NCBI GenBank assembly: GCA_030616365.1
Contig: JAUWXM010000001.1
Span: 1-52,362, forward strand
From: a bacterium
GTDB taxonomy: Bacteria > UBP18 > UBA7526
Direction of reading: 5' to 3'
DNA length: 52,362 bases
In this document: positions 130 to 51,524 of the stretch, piece by piece
Layout: every line of letters begins with the position of its first letter
How positions within the stretch are numbered: position 1 is the stretch's first letter
Position numbers and translations under genes: made by a program
The notes under the pieces: model-generated
What the model was told of the DNA's origin: nothing
Database searches by the model: none
Seen by the model: only the letters and a program-made list of their open reading frames with translations

Positions 130-205
130 AAAATAAAGGCAGCAGGTAAAAATTGTTACTTGTTCATTGTTACTTGTAAATTGAAAAGGAAGGGAGGTGA
201 GAAGA

Positions 206-721
206 ATGAAGAGAGGGAAAGGGGATTCACCCCGCACCTTTAAGAAAAGTGCAGGACGAATACAGAAAGGTGCGGGGTTCACCCTGATTGAGTTGATGGT
301 GGTGATAGTCATCATCGGGATCTTATCTGCTGTTGCCCTACCGAGGTTCATGACCCAGCAGAGGAAGGCCAAGGAGGGTGCCGGCTGGGCAGACCTGGAT
401 GGTATGACCACGGCCATGGAGATGTACTACCTGGACTGCGACACCTATCCTACAGGTGGTTCAAAGGACGATGGATCTATTGCTCTGCTGAAGTTAAAGA
501 CTGATACGTCAACCAGCAACTGGGCTGGACCTTACATGAAGTTCAGAAGGGTTGGAGATGGTTCAGGAGGAAGTGGCGATAAGCCTATCGATCCCTGGCT
601 GAGAACCTATGGATGTGAAAGTTCCGCTACCGAATACACCATTTGGTGCCAGGGGCGGGCGGCTGCGTCTTACGTAACCGAGTATATTCCTTACTCAGGT
701 CTCGACTTCAAGAGCCCCTAA
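206..721 (+). CDS. Major pseudopilin / type IV pilin-like protein (GspG/PulG-like)
   Basis: Prepilin signal ...KGAG|FTLIELMVVIVIIGILSAVALPRF. The C-terminal GPY...DPW pattern is typical of GspG. SD gggagg lies 8 nt before ATG 206; the ORF track opens at GTG 197. Confidence 0.85.
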   Translation: MKRGKGDSPRTFKKSAGRIQKGAGFTLIELMVVIVIIGILSAVALPRFMTQQRKAKEGAGWADLDGMTTAMEMYYLDCDTYPTGGSKDDGSIALLKLKTDTSTSNWAGPYMKFRRVGDGSGGSGDKPIDPWLRTYGCESSATEYTIWCQGRAAASYVTEYIPYSGLDFKSP

Positions 722-1317: not shown

Positions 1318-1448
1318 GTAATGAAACGGAGAAAGTGGGTAGGTGAAACAGTGAAACGGAGAAGGGGAGAAACGGAGAGGGGGAGAAACGGAGAAAAAAA
1401 GAAGCTCACCGATTCACCGATTCCCCGATTCCCCGATTCCCCGATTCG
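1318..1448 (+). repeat. Dispersed repeat copy A: gaaacggaga words plus the octanucleotide c[a/c]ccgatt x5 (1407-1446)
   Basis: Aligns by eye with 3509-3610. It lies inside the 5' end of ORF 1321..1875 and is translated as ...GETERGRNGEKKKLTDSPIPRFPDSPIR. Confidence 0.8.
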
Positions 1449-1875
1449 TTTTCAGACGGGCTTCAGTCTCTTAGAGGTCATGGTTGCTGTAGTTGTCCTG
1501 GGCTTCGGCCTCCTGGCTATCATGCACCTCTTCCCCATTGGCTTAAGGGCAAGCAAGATATCCCAGGATACTACTACGGCTTCCTTCTTAGCCCAGCAGA
1601 AGATAGAGGGATTGAAGAATGTGACCTTTACTGGGGGAGGATTTGCTGATGGGGTAACCACAGAGGGTTACGATCCACCCATTCAGATTACGGTTGATAA
1701 AGTGACCTATTCCTATCCAGGATTCAAAAGGGTAACCACCATCCAAACCAAAGAAGCTGATGAACCGATACTCAAGAGGATTACGACAGAGGTCTTCTAT
1801 AAACCCTATGGTGGGGAGCGGAGCGTAAAACTGGTTACCTTGAGAACAAACTATAAAAAGACAATGAAAAAATGA
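1321..1875 (+). CDS. Minor pseudopilin, GspI/PilV-like (set A), with an unusually long basic leader; start uncertain
   Basis: ...FQTG|FSLLEVMVAVVVLGFGLLAI prepilin motif. Paralogous to 4376..4765. The only canonical in-frame starts (ATG 1321, GTGs up to about 1351) give a leader of 37 aa or more. Confidence 0.7.
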   Translation: MKRRKWVGETVKRRRGETERGRNGEKKKLTDSPIPRFPDSPIRFQTGFSLLEVMVAVVVLGFGLLAIMHLFPIGLRASKISQDTTTASFLAQQKIEGLKNVTFTGGGFADGVTTEGYDPPIQITVDKVTYSYPGFKRVTTIQTKEADEPILKRITTEVFYKPYGGERSVKLVTLRTNYKKTMKK

Positions 1876-3508: not shown

Positions 3509-3610
3509 GTGAAATGGAGAAAGTGAACAGGCGGGCAGGTGAAACAATGAGACGGAGAAAGGGAGAGACGGAGAAAGGGAGAAAGCTCACCGATTCCCCG
3601 ATTCCCCGAC
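3509..3610 (+). repeat. Dispersed repeat copy B (same family as 1318-1448; octanucleotide present in about 3 units)
   Basis: aggtgaaacaatgagacggagaaagggagagacggagaaagggagaaagctcaccgattccccgattccccgac aligns with copy A. Confidence 0.8.
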
Positions 3611-4275
3611 TTGCCCCGTTGGAAGCCGAAGGCTTTCCTTCGGGGTTCCCCGATTCAAAGAAAAAGGGTTTTAGTCTCCTGGAACTTATGATGGTAATCA
3701 CCATTATGGGCATTCTAATTACTTCTTCCCTCTTATTTGGGAATAATTTTTTGAATAGTACTGCGGCGAAGAATGCTACCCGGGATATCGCTTCTGTTAT
3801 GCGCATGGCGCACAGCAAGGCCATGACCCTGAGAACTAATTATTATGTGGTCTATGATGCCACTAATAAAATAGTCTGGGTTCAGGATCTCAGAGGTCCC
3901 GATGGCAAGCCGGGCGTAAAGAATGTTGATGATGATAATAATGGTGTTGTCGATGAGACCGGGGAACTGGGCTGGGCCGGTTCTGACGACTTCAATATCA
4001 ATGATCCCAATACCTGGAACCCGCTCTTTGGTAGTGAAAGAAAACTTTCCAGAAGGGTGGAGATAGATAGCGTAAACGTCGAACCTGAAGATTATGGGGG
4101 CAAAAGTGATTACCAGACAGTGACGGGAGGCTCGGGCATCGGCTATCTTCCTTTCCGTTGGAATGGGACCTCCGTCTCTGGTTCGGTCAGACTGCAGGAT
4201 AGCAGAGGCAATAATCAATATTCGGTAACGGTTATGTACACTACCAGCCGGATCAGGTTATACAGTTTTTGGTGA
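3514..4275 (+). CDS. Minor pseudopilin, GspH/FimT-like (set B), long leader; start uncertain
   Basis: ...DSKKKG|FSLLELMMVITIMGILI motif. C-terminal YSVTVMYTTSRIRLYSFW matches set A GspH. An alternative in-frame TTG at 3619 would give a 17-aa leader. Confidence 0.7.
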   Translation: MEKVNRRAGETMRRRKGETEKGRKLTDSPIPRLAPLEAEGFPSGFPDSKKKGFSLLELMMVITIMGILITSSLLFGNNFLNSTAAKNATRDIASVMRMAHSKAMTLRTNYYVVYDATNKIVWVQDLRGPDGKPGVKNVDDDNNGVVDETGELGWAGSDDFNINDPNTWNPLFGSERKLSRRVEIDSVNVEPEDYGGKSDYQTVTGGSGIGYLPFRWNGTSVSGSVRLQDSRGNNQYSVTVMYTTSRIRLYSFW

Positions 4276-4375
4276 GATTGAATGATAGGTAATGGGTTTG
4301 CCTGTTCTCCGGTTTGCCTGTTCTCCGGTTTTGAACTGGTTAACTGGATAACGAAATCACCTATCGGAGGATAGC

Positions 4376-4777: not shown

Positions 4778-5491
4778 ATGTCTAAAAACCGTTTGAAGCG
4801 TTTCCTATCTCCAACGGGGTTTACCCTAATGGAACTCTTAGTAGCCATGGTTATTACGGTTCTCTTAGTAGCAGCGCTCTTTAATGTCTTTGACTTAGCG
4901 GGCCGTGCCTGGCAGAAAGGAGAGGCCCGTACCCAGAGATACCAGAACCTCCGGCAGGCCCTGGACAGGATGAGCGATGATATTCGTAGTGCTATCCTGC
5001 TCAGCATTGGCAATAATCCGGGTAAGGAAGATGGTATTAAATTCTATGGCGAGAATGATTTTAATTCTGAGGGGGATAGATTGAGCTTCATCCCCGTCTC
5101 CCATCCTCCGGATGGCTGGGATTATGGAAGCGACTATGGTGTTTCTCCTCCTGAACTATGTTTTGACTGCTGTGAGATAGGCTACAATGTCACGGGAACT
5201 ACACTCTATAGGAGGAAGCAGGAGAAGAGTGTCCCGGATGGCGAAGTCACCAACGGCGGAAGATCTGATCCACTGGCGGAACATATTACGAGATTAGATT
5301 TTACCTACTATGAGGCGGACGGCACCGAACATAACACCTGGGATTCCAGTCCTGCTGGAGCTTCCTATTGTCAAGACAAACTGCCCACCAGAGTCAGGAT
5401 TGAACTTACGGCTCAGGCAGACCTGGCCCGGGAGCAGAAGGAAGAGACTTTCACCACCGAGGTCTGGCTGGGCCAGGCTAATTTCCAGTAG
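4778..5491 (+). CDS. Minor pseudopilin, GspJ/PilW-like (set B)
   Basis: ...SPTG|FTLMELLVAMVITVLLVAALF, then RQALDRMSDDIRSA parallel to the set A GspJ-like protein. The ORF track opens at TTG 4775. Confidence 0.75.
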   Translation: MSKNRLKRFLSPTGFTLMELLVAMVITVLLVAALFNVFDLAGRAWQKGEARTQRYQNLRQALDRMSDDIRSAILLSIGNNPGKEDGIKFYGENDFNSEGDRLSFIPVSHPPDGWDYGSDYGVSPPELCFDCCEIGYNVTGTTLYRRKQEKSVPDGEVTNGGRSDPLAEHITRLDFTYYEADGTEHNTWDSSPAGASYCQDKLPTRVRIELTAQADLAREQKEETFTTEVWLGQANFQ

Positions 5492-9049: not shown

Positions 9050-9411
9050 AAGGCAGGCGGGCCCCGACGAGCGAGGAGCTGGGAATCGGGGTCTCCGCTT
9101 CGCTCCGAAAAGTGAGCAGGTGGGGAAAGGTATAGAAACTGGTTTAAGGGTATAGAAACTCGTATCGAGACTCATATCAAATAATATAACGCAATATCAA
9201 AAATCAAAATGCAAAAATTAAAATGACAATGCAAAATGTAAAATTTTGAATTTTAATCTGTAATTTTGATATTTAATTCTTAATGTTTGATTTTCTTAAA
9301 CGTTACGAGCATCGACAACGACAAACTTTTATTGACGATAAACGGTAGATTTGCAAAAGTTAAGTAATAATGTAAATTGCTCAATGTTCAATGTAGAGAG
9401 AGGAGTAGATT

Positions 9412-20882: not shown

Positions 20883-21028
20883 AAGTTCCGATACCTCAAA
20901 ATAGATTTAGAGTAATAGTGATCAGTGATCGGTAATCGGTCAGTTAAAAAAATTAACTATTCAACATTTTAACTCATTAACTTGTTAACTTATCAACTTG
21001 TTAACTATCCGAGCAAAGCGAGGGTGAG

Positions 21029-25319: not shown

Positions 25320-25435
25320 GAAGTAACAAGTTAACAAGGATACAAGTTAACAAGTTCCAAGTCGTCCCAAAACTTATTGACTTATTAACTAATCAACTTG
25401 TTAACGTATTAACTCGCGACCGAAGGGAGCGTGGG

Positions 25436-26526: not shown

Positions 26527-26610
26527 TAAGCGCCAAGTCGCTAAAGTTTAAAACAAAAACGCCAAATTATTTTGGCGCTTTTGCGAACTTTTAGCGCTTT
26601 AGCGTTTAGC

Positions 26611-26632
26611 GCTTTGGCGGTTGCAAAGGAGG
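26611..26632 (+). promoter_or_regulatory. Conserved SD-fused box gctttggcggttgcaaaggagg
   Basis: Identical to 28962-28983. Followed in both loci by tgaagaga. Confidence 0.6.
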
Positions 26633-36753: not shown

Positions 36754-37836
36754 ATGGACTATTTAATTAAGAAGGTCAGGAAAAGAGACTTTTCTCTCTA
36801 CAGGATAGACCCGGATGGGAAGGGAGTGAGAAGATACATCATTTCTACTCCCCAGACGCGAAAGATATGTAATATTCCGGAGATCATGGGTTTCGAATAT
36901 ATAAGCACCCTCCAGGAAGGGATGAAGAAGATTCTGAAGAACCTTCCTTTCCATCGCTTCGATGATAAAAGTGTCTCTGTCTTACACTTCTTAAGAGGAG
37001 GACTCAACTTCGGCCTCCCTTTTCTCCTTCACAAGGTCTATGGCTTTAATAGGCACTTCTCTTCCTTCATTACCTCCCAGAGATATAAGAAAAGAGGAAA
37101 ATGGTCCATAAAGTTAGACCAGTATCGGAAGTTTTCTATTCCTAAGGATACCAATATCTTCTTGGGGGATGTCATCGCTACCGGAACCACCTTAGAGAAT
37201 GGATTGGGGATACTTTATAGGAGATGTTTGGAAGAGAAGAAGAATATCAGGAACTTCATCGTCTTCACTATCGGTTGTCATAAAGCAGAGAAAATCTTAG
37301 AGAGATTCGATAGACTCTTCAGGACATCATTCGACTATCAAAACACCTATCTCTATTATTTAGAAGGGAGGTTCGGTCTTCCAGAGAAGAGGAAGGATTT
37401 TAGGATCTGTATTCCGGGAACAGACCTCATTCGCCATCCCGCCCTTCTCTCCCCAGAGTTTGAACTATTCCAATATGAAAAAATATCTTATCCCTTGGAG
37501 AGATGCGCTATTTATGATGTGGGCTCTCGCTCCTTTGAGTGCCTTACTCACTTAAAGGATGTCATTGACTACTGGGAGAAATTGTCAAATACAGAAATGA
37601 CTCTCTATGAGGCGTATAAAGAGAGATGGCCGGAGAGGGAATATAGTTCGTTTGCGAGACTGAGAGAAACAAAGAGAAAAACCTGGAGGAATATGGATTC
37701 AAAGTTAATTAAGAACCTTTACCAGGCATACCAAAGGAGATGGACTCCAAAGAGAATAAGAGAGGCCAAGAAGAAAAACGCCCTCAAAAAATTCTGTAAT
37801 CAAAGAATAAAAGAAATAAAGAAACTGATGAAATGA
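36754..37836 (+). CDS. Uracil-phosphoribosyltransferase-like (PRTase fold) protein with a C-terminal extension of about 150 aa
   Basis: VLHFLRGGLNFGLPF...SSFITSQRYKKRGKW...IPKDTNIFLGDVIATGTTLENGL parallels the UPRT RAGLG / PRPP-loop (D-x-x-x-A-T-G) layout. Confidence 0.55.
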   Translation: MDYLIKKVRKRDFSLYRIDPDGKGVRRYIISTPQTRKICNIPEIMGFEYISTLQEGMKKILKNLPFHRFDDKSVSVLHFLRGGLNFGLPFLLHKVYGFNRHFSSFITSQRYKKRGKWSIKLDQYRKFSIPKDTNIFLGDVIATGTTLENGLGILYRRCLEEKKNIRNFIVFTIGCHKAEKILERFDRLFRTSFDYQNTYLYYLEGRFGLPEKRKDFRICIPGTDLIRHPALLSPEFELFQYEKISYPLERCAIYDVGSRSFECLTHLKDVIDYWEKLSNTEMTLYEAYKERWPEREYSSFARLRETKRKTWRNMDSKLIKNLYQAYQRRWTPKRIREAKKKNALKKFCNQRIKEIKKLMK

Positions 37837-37994
37837 AGAAATTACTTGGCAAGAAATTAAAGGTTATCGATCTGGGGCTGGAGTCCTTTCATGATTCATT
37901 AAAGGAGCAGGGAGTGGATGTTCTGCACGTTGACTGGAGACCACCCGCTGGTGGAAATAAGAGACTAATGGAAATCCTGAAGAAACTAAAGTGA
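37833..37994 (+). CDS. 53-aa ORF resembling the detached C-terminal module of FdrA
   Basis: KVIDLGLESFHDSLKEQGVDVLHVDWRPPAGGNKRLMEILKKLK. As I recall it, E. coli FdrA ends ...INIGLRSFALEL...VVHYQWSPVAGGNKKLARLLERLQ. ATGA overlap with the upstream gene. Below the ORF-track size cut-off. Confidence 0.55.
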   Translation: MKKLLGKKLKVIDLGLESFHDSLKEQGVDVLHVDWRPPAGGNKRLMEILKKLK

Positions 37995-39267: not shown

Positions 39268-40518
39268 ATGACCAGGAGGGGAAAGATTATAAATAGGGCG
39301 AATGGGAAAGCGGTCAAGAGGATGATCGATTCCCAGCCGATACTGGTAGATATTAAGCAGGCCAAGGATGTCATTCCGGAAATGACCAAGAGGACTATCC
39401 TTCATGCCGGACCTCCTATAGAATGGAAGAGGATGTGCGGACCGGTAAGGGGAGCCATAATGGGTGCCCTAATCTATGAGGGATTGGCAAGAAACCCCGA
39501 AGAGGCGAAAAAATTAGCGGCATCTGGGAAAATAAAATTTTCTCCCTGCCACCACCATAATGCGGTGGGCCCTATGGCCGGAGTAGTCTCAGCCTCTATG
39601 TATGTCTTTGTAGTCAAGAACGAGAAATTTGGAAATTATGCCTACTGCACCTTGAATGAGGGATTAGGAAAGGTATTGAGGTTTGGGGCCTATAGTGAAG
39701 AGGTAATCGAGAGGCTTAGGTGGATGGAAAAGGTCCTTGCTCCGGGCTTGAAGAAGGCGGTTAAGAAATCGGGAGGGATAAATATCAAGAACCTGACCGC
39801 TCAAGCACTTCAGATGGGTGACGAGTGCCATAATAGAAATGTTGCTGCAACATCATTATTTATAAAGGAGATTACTCCTTACTTCCTCAAGACCGATCTG
39901 GATAAGAAAATAATAAGAGAGATAATTGAGTTTATCTCGGGGAATGTTCACTTCTTTCTGAATATCTCCATGGCGGCCTGTAAGGCAACCGCAGATACTA
40001 TCCTTGGTTTTAAGAATAGTTCCTTAGTGAGCGCCATGGCCAGGAATGGGACAGAGATTGGAATAAGGGTGGCAGGATTAGGAAAGAAGTGGTTTACGGC
40101 AAAGGCCGGAATGCCCAAGGGGTTATACTTTGCGGGATATAGTGAAAAGGACGCCAATCCAGACTTAGGAGATTCCACAATATCAGAGGTCGCAGGCATC
40201 GGGGGATTTGCTATGGCCTCTGCCCCGGCTATCGTTCAGTTCATCGGAGGAAGTCCTCAGGATGCCATAAAATACACCAAAGAGATGTATGAGATTACTA
40301 TTTCCCAACATAGCACTTATAAGATTCCTTCCCTTGACTTTATGGGGACTCCTATTGGTATCGATATCAGAAAGATAGTTGAGACCGGGATTACTCCGTT
40401 TATCAATACTGGAATTGCCCATAAGAGACCGGGCATCGGCCAGATAGGAGCTGGCATCCTGCGCGCCCCCATGAGCATCTTCGAAGAGGCCTTGGTTGCC
40501 TTAAGTTTACCCCGTTAG
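39268..40518 (+). CDS. DUF1116 (YlbE-like) protein
   Basis: ILHAGPPIEWKRMCGPVRGAIMGALIYEGLA...HHHNAVGPMAGV... The family normally accompanies FdrA and DUF2877. Confidence 0.7.
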   Translation: MTRRGKIINRANGKAVKRMIDSQPILVDIKQAKDVIPEMTKRTILHAGPPIEWKRMCGPVRGAIMGALIYEGLARNPEEAKKLAASGKIKFSPCHHHNAVGPMAGVVSASMYVFVVKNEKFGNYAYCTLNEGLGKVLRFGAYSEEVIERLRWMEKVLAPGLKKAVKKSGGINIKNLTAQALQMGDECHNRNVAATSLFIKEITPYFLKTDLDKKIIREIIEFISGNVHFFLNISMAACKATADTILGFKNSSLVSAMARNGTEIGIRVAGLGKKWFTAKAGMPKGLYFAGYSEKDANPDLGDSTISEVAGIGGFAMASAPAIVQFIGGSPQDAIKYTKEMYEITISQHSTYKIPSLDFMGTPIGIDIRKIVETGITPFINTGIAHKRPGIGQIGAGILRAPMSIFEEALVALSLPR

Positions 40519-40571
40519 AGATCCTCGTCAGAGACGAGGCAGACGCTTTAGGCGTCTTATCTCTAACGGGG
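40510..40571 (+). other. 62-nt three-way-junction palindromic element (copy 1) overlapping the stop codon
   Basis: Outer stem ccccgttagagat/atctctaacgggg. Inner hairpins cctcgtc-aga-gacgagg and agacgc-tttag-gcgtct. The TAG stop (40516-18) lies in the 5' arm. Confidence 0.8.
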
Positions 40572-40714
40572 CAGGGCATAATTTTCCTTTCTTTTCCGCT
40601 GAATTTGAAGTATAATGTTTATATTAAACGAGGCAAGCGAAGCGCGTCGTTATAATACTCGTTGTATTAGAAGGGGCAAGCGATGGGGCGTCTTCATACT
40701 TTTAGGGGAGACAA

Positions 40715-50099: not shown

Positions 50100-51353
50100 A
50101 TGGATATTGTTGCCTTGAAAGAAAAAACCATCTCTGAGTTGAGTGACGTGGCGAAGAAGATGAGGATTCCTGGAATAGGCAATTTGAGGAAGCAAGAGCT
50201 CATCTTCAAGATATTAGAGGCCCAGACGAAGAAGGAGGGTCTTTTATTTGGGGAAGGGGTCTTGGAGATCCTTCCCGACGGCTTCGGCTTCCTGCGTTCC
50301 CCCAATACTAACTACCTGCCCGGCCCAGATGACATCTACGTCTCTCCCTCTCAGATAAGGCGCTTCAGCCTCAGGAAAGGGGATACTGTCTCCGGCCAGA
50401 TTCGGCCCCCAAAAGAGAGTGAAAAGTTCTTCGCTTTACTTAAGGTTGAGGCAGTAAACTTTGAAAACCCAGAACTGGCTAAGGAGAAGATACTATTCGA
50501 TAACCTCACCCCCCTATACCCTAAGGAGAAGATTAGACTGGAGACGGGAGCCGATACTATCTCAGAGAGGGTCATGGACCTCTTAACTCCTATCGGGAAA
50601 GGTCAGAGGGGCCTAATCGTCTCTCCTCCCAGGGCAGGAAAGACCATTCTATTGCAGAAGACCGCTAATTCCATCACCACCAACCATCCAGAGATAATCT
50701 TGATTGTTCTCTTGGTTGGAGAAAGGCCAGAAGAGGTGACGGATATGGAGCGAAGCGTCAAAGGAGAGGTAGTCTCCTCCACCTTTGATGAACCGGCCAC
50801 CCGCCATGTCCAGGTGGCAGAGATGGTATTGGAGAAGGCCAAGAGGCTTGTGGAGTATAAGAAGGACGTGGTCATTCTCTTGGACTCTGTCACCAGGTTG
50901 GCCCGGGCATATAATACTATTTGCCCCCATTCGGGAAAGATACTGACTGGAGGGGTGGATGCCAATGCCTTACCCAAGCCTAAGAGGTTCTTTGGTTCGG
51001 CACGCAACATTGAAGAGGGTGGTTCCCTAACCATTCTGGCTACGGCGCTCATTGATACGGGAAGTAAGATGGATGAAGTAATCTTTGAGGAGTTCAAGGG
51101 AACGGGGAATATGGAACTGGTCCTCGATAGAAGGCTGGTGGATAAGAGGATATTTCCCGCCATTGATATCTCGCGAAGCGGGACGAGAAAAGAAGAACTC
51201 TTACTGGATAAGGAGGATTTGAACAAGGTCTGGGTCTTGAGGAAGGTATTGAGTCCGCTCGATGTTGTTGAGAAGATGGAACTCCTAATTGAAAGGCTGA
51301 AAAAGACTAAGACCAATAAGGAATTCTTAGCGTCCATGAATTCACCCCGTTAG
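50100..51353 (+). CDS. rho: Transcription termination factor Rho
   Basis: N-terminal [20 protein letters not shown], an RNA-binding domain (GFGFLRSP), Walker A ([12 protein letters not shown]), and a C-terminal [22 protein letters not shown]. Confidence 0.95.
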
Positions 51354-51406
51354 AAGTCCACACCGCTGGTGTGGCACCCGCCTGAGGCGGCTTACTTCTA
51401 ACGGGG
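51345..51406 (+). other. 62-nt three-way-junction palindromic element (copy 2) overlapping the rho stop codon
   Basis: Outer stem ccccgttagaagt/acttctaacgggg. Inner hairpins ccacac-cgctg-gtgtgg and ccgcc-tga-ggcgg. The TAG stop lies at 51351-53 in the 5' arm. Confidence 0.8.
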
Positions 51407-51524
51407 CAAGGGAGGGCGCCGGGTGCGACGAATATAAGGAGCACCGACTGAAGCGATGGCACAAGGAAAGGCGCGGGCGCGAGTCGGTGAGCGCCCCGGG
51501 TCGACGACTAAAAGGAGGAGACAA

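Follow-up and report, generated by a model that had tools for sequence, protein, structure and literature searches.

An 8-nt microsatellite ahead of a minor pilin cleavage site is one arm of a dispersed palindromic repeat and probably a stable, translated insert

The 8-nt microsatellite that precedes the prepilin cleavage site of a PilV/GspI-like minor (pseudo)pilin gene is the C-rich arm of a dispersed, bipartite and imperfectly palindromic repeat, with a purine arm (GNGAAACG)n and a C-rich arm (CCGATTCN)n. The anatomy of this repeat, its dispersal and the conservation of its frame and copy number were read directly from the window, i.e., the whole stretch of 52,362 nucleotides analysed here, and from related sequences. 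Judging from these sequences, the microsatellite looks evolutionarily stable, and the phase-variation switch proposed by an earlier sequence-only reading is not supported. The explanation that we hold to be probable is that a selfish-like repeat is tolerated in frame in the cleavable leader of the pilin, where it would be translated and stable and would not act as a hypermutable switch.

The window starts, on the + strand, with a type IV filament gene cluster. This cluster comprises a GspG-like major pilin, a PilM-PilN fusion, PilO, a secretin with AMIN domains and ComEC, together with two sets of minor (pseudo)pilins, each in H-I-J-K order. The ORF 1321..1875 encodes the PilV/GspI-like protein of set A, and the ORF 3514..4275 a GspH-like protein. 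The ORF list, Pfam and the sequence agree that both carry repeat-encoded leaders before the G|F site, as had been described. The N-methylation motif lies far from the ORF start, at aa 44-67 in 1321..1875 and at aa 48-71 in 3514..4275 (Pfam N_methyl, E = 8e-6 and 2e-7, respectively), and the NCBIfam model IV_pilin_GFxxxE scored 21.7 and 28 bits in the two pilins, for a cut-off of 16.3. Both proteins (G|FSLLEVMVAVVVLGFGLLAI, G|FSLLELMMVITIMGILI) show the hallmarks of type IV prepilins, i.e., G at position -1, then F or M at +1, Glu at +5 and a hydrophobic stretch that spans some 20 residues as a helix. For the mature part of 1459..1875, PilV and GspI were the best NCBIfam matches, both under the equivalog cut-offs. 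The mature pilin proteins are clearly constrained, which indicates that the pilin genes are expressed.

A database search returned 34 homologues for the GspI-like protein of set A. All homologues came from uncultured bacteria, and the nearest public genomes were the MAGs "bacterium CSMAG_2758", "bacterium CSMAG_2709" and UBP18_UBA7526. The comparison set consists of few independent genomes, all of them MAGs or metagenome contigs, across which the orthology of set A and set B is approximate. Exact-protein look-ups with the GspI-like and GspJ-like proteins of the window found no other contig encoding identical proteins.

The features of the first copy of the repeat (copy A) and of the pilin that follows it are:
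1321..1350, + strand: 30-nt upstream duplicate of the start module, with ATG 1321; no SD (pairing -2.2 kcal/mol)
1341..1353, + strand: SD AGGTGA (1341-1346), 4-nt spacer and GTG start (1351-1353), forming the conserved module AGGTGAAACA[G/A]TG
1345..1396, + strand: purine-rich 5' arm, GAAACGGA x6.5 or 16-nt unit GAAACGGAGAAGGGGA x2.7 (TRF), encoding KRRRGETERGRNGEK
1394..1401, + strand: A7 run (1394-1400), then G; in the zero frame 1395-1401 reads A_AAA_AAG
1407..1446, + strand: C-rich 3' arm, i.e., the 8-nt microsatellite of five units c[a/c]ccgatt (sequence, TRF), encoding TDSPIPRFPDSPI
1447..1464, + strand: junction ..CGT TTT CAG ACG, then the cleavage-site codons GGC TTC at 1459-1464 (sequence)
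1459..1875, + strand: mature PilV/GspI-like minor (pseudo)pilin (Pfam N_methyl; NCBIfam IV_pilin_GFxxxE above cut-off)

Sequence and TRF confirmed the five units at exactly 1407-1446 and the A7 run at 1394-1400. TRF described the microsatellite as CCGATTCC x4.9 (1409-1447, 96% matches), with 3.9 perfect units, and the pattern CCGATTCMCCGATTC occurs 6 times in the 52-kb window, for 0.31 expected, always at the two pilin loci. The purine-rich stretch before the A7 run, which the earlier description had passed over, is itself a tandem array. When this purine array was compared with the reverse complement of the C-rich array, 27 of 38 positions matched in register, a value equalled by 5 of 2000 shuffles; the two arrays are thus arms of a single, imperfect palindrome that has a period of 8 nt. 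The junction exists in another form, AAAGAAAGCG, in L001, L102 and the second copy of the window (copy B), and the A7 run is kept in L097, L098, L099 and L001 and missing from copy B. The module AGGTGAAACA[G/A]TG is also found at 3537-3549, in L102 and in L002, while the 30-nt duplication of the start module recurs in L102, and twice in L097 before a GspH-like gene. ATG 1321 opens the longest ORF, yet it is probably not the main start. No promoter was found within the arrays on the + strand.

A_AAA_AAG is the classical bacterial -1 slippery heptamer, and the one at 1395-1401 stands, within 1378-1401, with GGGGGAG 9 nt upstream, an arrangement like that of dnaX. The heptamer is kept in L097, L099 and L001, reads AAC in L098 and is missing from copy B. 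A programmed -1 frameshift at this site would lead into a frame that encodes nothing recognizable (our own reading), and copy B has no such run.

That the repeat is dispersed over both pilin loci had been noticed before and was borne out, with a second copy at about 3537-3609 and both copies in frame before G|F. The second locus reads as follows:
3537..3609, + strand: copy B of the element, with SD AGGTGA at 3537-3542 and ATG 3547 (TRF and pattern search)
3610..3645, + strand: 36-nt hairpin CTTGCCCCGTTGGAAGCCGAAGGCTTTCCTTCGGGG, nested in the C array in frame (12 codons), with an inner 7-bp stem CCGAAGG/CCTTCGG
3646..4275, + strand: last array unit, junction (DSKKK), G|F at 3667 and mature GspH-like pseudopilin (sequence, Pfam, NCBIfam)

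In copy B the purine arm (3549-3585) is followed by AAGCTCA and by 2.5 units of CCGATTCC (3590-3609). Copies A and B share about 100 nt, roughly 1336-1436 vs 3532-3609, with an identity of ~85% by eye; the C arm of copy B is far shorter than that of copy A and is broken by the separate 36-nt hairpin element. Hairpins of this type were counted seven times (36, 42 or 63 nt, the 63-nt form being 36 + 27 nested) in the C arrays of the window, L001, L101, L102 and L103, and the 36-nt element was found within such arrays at five further loci. The 36-nt hairpin is bordered by 8-nt direct repeats; the same picture is expected from insertion into the array without any target-site duplication. The idea that the 8-nt period is a target-site-duplication footprint was dropped, since such repeats are expected in an 8-nt array and an 8-bp duplication breaks the multiple of 3.

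Two further pilin leaders of the window contain an insert or match one:
206..277, + strand: leader of the GspG-like major pilin, with a 54-nt in-frame hairpin insert at ~221-274 (RNA fold z = -3.1)
4778..4822, + strand: leader of the GspJ-like pilin of set B, MSKNRLKRFLSPTG|F, in which 4790-4823 matches the right end of the GIY-YIG-bearing insert of L003

Among 200 shuffles of the GspG leader hairpin, one folded as well, and the orthologue leaders read MKREKG|F. The match of the GspJ-like leader is complete (window 4790-4823 vs L003 2007-2040, 34/34 nt identical). In L003 (1700-2040), the G|F codons of a GspI-like gene are the site of a ~280-nt cassette with the ends CCCCGTTGGAG / CTCCAACGGGG. 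The gene that it carries is a frameshifted GIY-YIG nuclease, which Pfam recognizes with E = 2e-5 once the frame is corrected. Upstream of the cassette, an MKKG.. start survives as a remnant, and the pilin leader is now provided by the right end of the cassette (..RLKRFLSPTG|F). The left end of the same cassette lies directly past a G|F in L102 (5760-6083). No transposase was identified; this decayed GIY-YIG gene in a related insert was the only candidate. Also, 39-nt hairpins occur in frame at G|F, where they regenerate a second G|F, in L018 (1460-1500), L019 (1530-1605), L097 (3290-3333) and L102 (3095-3135). The L018 hairpin has a 16-bp stem by our own reading, e.g., ACCCCGCACCATTTTT-GGTTG-AAAAATGGTGCTGGGT, and L019 carries two of them in tandem.

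The leaders of the relatives fall into three groups. Those of the first are short and canonical, e.g., MKRRMGETG|F (L020) or MGNKG|F, those of the second contain the element of the window (L097, L098, L099, L001, L017, L102), and those of the third consist of other 8-mer arrays (CACCGATA, CTTTCTCA, GGTAATCA) or of the 39-nt hairpins (L018, L019). L020 is an orthologue without insert (ATGAAACGGAGAATGGGAGAAACG-GGTTTT, read as MKRRMGETG|F), and the leader of the window corresponds to the L020 sequence plus 84 nt placed between GAAACG and the G codon. The contigs L097, L098 and L099 end just upstream of the leader, so that the 5' context is absent; these breaks are probably due to the repeat.

Copies of the element precede GspH-, GspI- and GspJ-like genes in L001, L002 and L097-L103, and over 40 nt copy B shows 97.5% identity with the leader found in a GspI homologue whose protein identity is only 47%. 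An exhaustive HMMER search with the leader peptide retrieved three representatives, namely the orthologue cluster, the prepilin P0036 and an ABC-transporter ATPase, P0037, while a word-indexed search gave one match, a spurious ORF of 48 aa. In P0037, from another organism, the bipartite element GGTGAAACGGAGAAACGGGG...CCGATTCCC...CCCGATTCCCC lies in frame in the stretch from the N-terminal strand to Walker A. This element-bearing ABC-ATPase gene also has a second bipartite purine/pyrimidine array right after Walker A GRNGAG (L104, 1780-1960); the second insert replaces the next residues and shifts the frame, which suggests a possible pseudogene.

Translation most likely starts at GTG 1351 and at ATG 3547 and reads through the repeats, which would give leaders of 36 and 40 residues. 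SD pairing reached -12.3 kcal/mol at GTG 1351 and -12.4 kcal/mol at ATG 3547, whereas the genes of the window have a median of -8.3 and the background has its 5th percentile at -10.6, and the only SD-supported canonical starts sit at the 5' end of the arrays. P0001 (174 aa), an independent gene call from the database, begins at GTG 1351. If the longest ORFs were used in place of the SD-supported starts, the leaders would measure 46 and 51 aa. By our own count, this hydrophilic leader has a net charge of about +6 in copy A.

The sequence-only reading had rightly stated that no in-frame ATG, GTG or TTG lies between the tract and the G codon at 1459. It had also pointed to an in-frame ATT as a possible start; this codon is present, but at 1444-1446 and not at 1445-1447. 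If initiation took place at this non-canonical ATT 1444 (MRFQTG|F), the arrays would be 5' UTR and the extension of the ORF an accident of stop-poor composition. We regard this alternative as highly improbable, even though arrays with a period of 7 or 8 are common in clearly non-coding DNA of the window (150-183, 4295-4352, 20920-21006, 25324-25414, 26570-26619), and the arrays are T-poor and hence have few stop codons. Short-unit direct repeats right before start codons are also known elsewhere (PMC4679880), and the in-frame ATT is kept in L099 and L002, with an ATG at position -2 in L097 and L098. However, ATT 1444 shows no SD pairing (-1.8 kcal/mol, as for ATT 1420 and TTG 3619), while most genes here have an SD, and a conserved SD and start module stands at the 5' end of the arrays. 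Also, the L001-type genes and copy B carry the same arrays and have no in-frame ATG, GTG, TTG or ATT past the last array unit, so that their initiation must lie upstream of the arrays. The in-frame TTG 3619 of copy B falls inside the nested hairpin element.

The lengths of the inserts argue against a 5' UTR as well. Every measured leader insert is a multiple of 3 nt with no stop in the gene frame, for about one third expected if they were untranslated: 36, 42 and 63 nt for the nested hairpins, 39 and 2 x 39 nt in L018 and L019, 54 nt in GspG of the window, 57 nt in GspH of L018 and L020, 75 nt in L001 and 84 nt in copy A of the window. Differences in unit number are compensated, as L001 and L102 combine 4 units with a 10-nt junction (42 nt) and the window 5 units with an 11-nt junction (51 nt). 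In L099, the purine arm is longer by 8 nt, which shifts the old start out of frame; the array of L099 contains a new SD and GTG that are in frame. With motif-defined starts, 6 independent leaders were in frame and 3 were not (binomial p ~0.04 by our own estimate, from few independent events); two of these three have a replacement start, and one gene is disrupted. The composition of the repeat by itself leaves two of the three frames almost stop-free.

Slipped-strand phase variation, in which the GspI-like pilin of set A is toggled at high frequency whenever an 8-nt unit, or an A within the A7 run, is added or deleted, appears quite improbable to us. Its premises on the tract itself hold. A change of 8 nt in the C-rich tract would indeed break the frame, as had been claimed, since there is no downstream start, and would abolish the protein; also, 8-nt indels do happen in the purine arm on evolutionary time scales (L099). 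There is a precedent, as repeats lie within the signal-peptide coding regions of Neisseria opa and pilC. Like these contingency loci (CTCTT/CTTCT in opa, poly-G in pilC), our locus has a tandem unit that is not a multiple of 3 between the start and the mature surface protein. With five units of 8 nt, 3.9 of them perfect, placed such that a change of unit number alters expression, the microsatellite also exceeds the in-silico cut-off for phase-variable tracts, which is at least 3 units for units of 6-9 nt (PMC5953494).

Unlike in the Neisseria loci, however, the copy number is fixed here. Exactly five units, along with the A7 run, are seen in the window and in each of L097, L098 and L099, whereas true contingency tracts of similar unit length span 3-22 or 5-25 units between strains (PMC5953494). 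The number of C-arm units did not vary across these four divergent orthologues, which are all in frame, so that the variable copy number and the ON and OFF alleles of a contingency locus were not found among them. The leader DNA of the window is 94% identical to that of L097 and L098, gapless over 108 nt, and 87% identical to that of L099, while in the same comparisons the mature parts share 66-67% DNA identity and the TM-helix segment, the best conserved, 81-83%. Neighbouring genes are ~69-80% identical. More distant copies have decayed by substitution and not by unit turnover: L001 and L102 have 4 units and a junction shorter by 1 nt, with point substitutions in L001. None of ~15 related leaders had its C array out of frame. 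Finally, the array is an arm of a dispersed element that is also present in non-surface genes.

The leader appears to be conserved as DNA or RNA more than as protein. Between the window and L097, the leaders have 6 differences, 1 of them synonymous (counted by eye). A nucleotide conservation above that of a merely tolerated peptide suggests either a role at the DNA or RNA level or a recent copying of the element. Two readings fit: the element family may be copied or homogenized, in line with its presence before GspH-, GspI- and GspJ-like genes and with the 40-nt match of copy B, or pairing of the arms may regulate the gene by hiding the SD and start codon in a hairpin. According to the latter, the element would be a cis-regulatory RNA, possibly also translated, whose C arm pairs with the purine arm holding the SD and start codon, and translation of the minor pilin would depend either on the melting of this long, mismatched hairpin or on a protein with affinity for the repeated ACGGA / GGA motifs. 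In register, the two arms show significant complementarity, and the SD/start region is paired with the C arm in the MFE fold. Nevertheless, the fold energy equals that of dinucleotide shuffles (z = 0.17 and -0.15 for the two arrays), and the duplex energy is only ~1 sd better than shuffles. The identity of the leader DNA (94%, window vs L097/L098) surpasses that of the best coding part (82-83%), its differences being mostly non-synonymous, but the sequences are too alike for covariation. Rfam gave weak matches of the hairpin type (miRNA precursors) at 1357-1443, all sub-threshold, and no family at gathering score, and the C arm of copy B is much shorter and is interrupted by another element. 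As the fold is not above shuffles and no Rfam family was matched, we rank the regulatory hairpin as a minor and non-exclusive rival, rather unlikely overall.

We therefore return to the tolerated, translated insert as the probable explanation. The bipartite repeat and the other small hairpin elements of the lineage would occupy the leader before G|F, the part of the pilin that is discarded after synthesis. The purine arm would provide the SD and the start codon (GTG 1351; ATG 3547), and ribosomes would read through both arms in frame. The resulting leader, basic at its N-terminus and proline-rich near the cleavage site, would be removed by the prepilin peptidase. We infer translation itself, the cleavage of such long leaders and the neutrality of the insert from these sequence comparisons. 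The insert would then be old and stable and held in frame by selection, as selfish DNA tolerated in a dispensable coding segment.

A more specific proposal, which we put forward tentatively, is that, in this lineage, small mobile elements of several kinds insert preferentially at the GGN TTY ACC/AGT codons where the prepilin is cleaved. This guild would comprise the 8-mer bipartite palindromes, the 36-42-nt and 39-nt hairpins and the CCCCGTTGGAG/CTCCAACGGGG GIY-YIG cassette. The host gene would survive either through an insert length that is a multiple of 3, or through an SD, start and leader donated by the element together with a regenerated G|F. The leader would be a safe harbour for selfish DNA, and most minor-pilin leaders here would be derived from elements.

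The closest known systems are the Rickettsia palindromic elements (RPEs), which are small, palindromic, dispersed repeats inserted in frame in unrelated genes and translated as extra segments (PMC10969869). Like RPEs and intragenic MITEs, the element and its hairpin relatives are multi-copy and dispersed, have an inverted-repeat architecture and lie in frame in otherwise intact ORFs, i.e., in several pilin genes and in an ABC-ATPase gene. In contrast to RPEs, whose arms are of unique sequence, the element here has arms made of 8-nt tandem units and carries an SD and a start codon of its own; in those pilin operons that were examined, all copies fall within the cleavable leader, immediately before G|F. 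The likeness is one of behaviour, and we claim no sequence relationship.

The leaders resemble class III (type IV prepilin) signal peptides in being hydrophilic and positive and in their terminal Gly, after which come F and a hydrophobic helix containing Glu5. However, reviewed class III leaders measure 6-26 aa (PMC4471445), whereas those described here would reach 36 and 40 aa, and up to 76 aa in relatives. The window also shares with other bacteria the presence of tandem 7-8-nt arrays in many intergenic regions: short-unit direct repeats, such as the TAACTGA heptamers of Beggiatoaceae, cyanobacteria and Bacteroidetes and the cyanobacterial STRR heptamers, occur many times per genome upstream of genes, with no known mechanism (PMC4679880). 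Unlike in these families, the unit varies here by site, the arrays are often inverted pairs, and some have entered coding sequence. Three features are new here: the arms made of 8-nt tandem units, the SD and start borne by the element, and the accumulation of several classes of elements exactly at the cleavage-site codons, with very long leaders.

If translation does run through these leaders, their length (36-76 aa, 2-3x that of any reviewed case) must be tolerated by prepilin peptidase and during membrane insertion, and the discarded leader would be an evolutionary safe harbour where repeat DNA accumulates without killing the gene. Our data also indicate that a repeat tract which passes in-silico phase-variation filters can still be evolutionarily static. 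For annotation, gene callers are inconsistent on such leaders. The database calls of P0023 (L100, 216-572) and P0034 (L101, 319-666) begin at an internal Met past the cleavage site. In the DNA of L100 and L101, the G|F sites are intact and preceded by in-frame, repeat-derived leaders of 43 and 76 codons. The array of the L100 leader has a 7-nt unit, CGACCCG, in ~4 units.

The pile-up of elements at G|F codons, along with the intergenic arrays of period 8, points to an uncharacterized process that generates or targets repeats in an unstudied phylum. In the window, tandem arrays of 7-8-nt units were observed in intergenic or 5' UTR positions at 150-183, 4295-4352, 9196-9290, 20920-21006, 25324-25414, 26570-26619 and 37798-37842. 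Their units differ by site (AACTTGTT, GGTTTGCC/TGTTCTCC, TTTAGCGC, AAAATGC...), and those at 25324-25414 form an inverted pair, TAACAAGT x4 followed by AACTTATT x5.5. Intergenic autocorrelation peaked at lags 7-8, with an excess that is modest once the regions of the two pilin loci themselves are removed. Upstream of the GspG gene, positions 1-136 consist of a perfect 43-nt unit (AAAATAAGCCAAGCAAGTTGTCTCTTTTACTCGCTTCGCTCAT) x3.2; this repeat has no spacers and is not CRISPR-like, and it may mark a contig end inside a repeat. Also, two MITE-like elements of ~65 nt were found at 40507-40575 and 51342-51407. Their termini are the inverted repeats CCCCGTTAGAG / CTCTAACGGGG, between which lie two hairpins. 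Both elements extend over the 3' end of the gene before them, including its stop codon, and related copies are present in L022 and L102.
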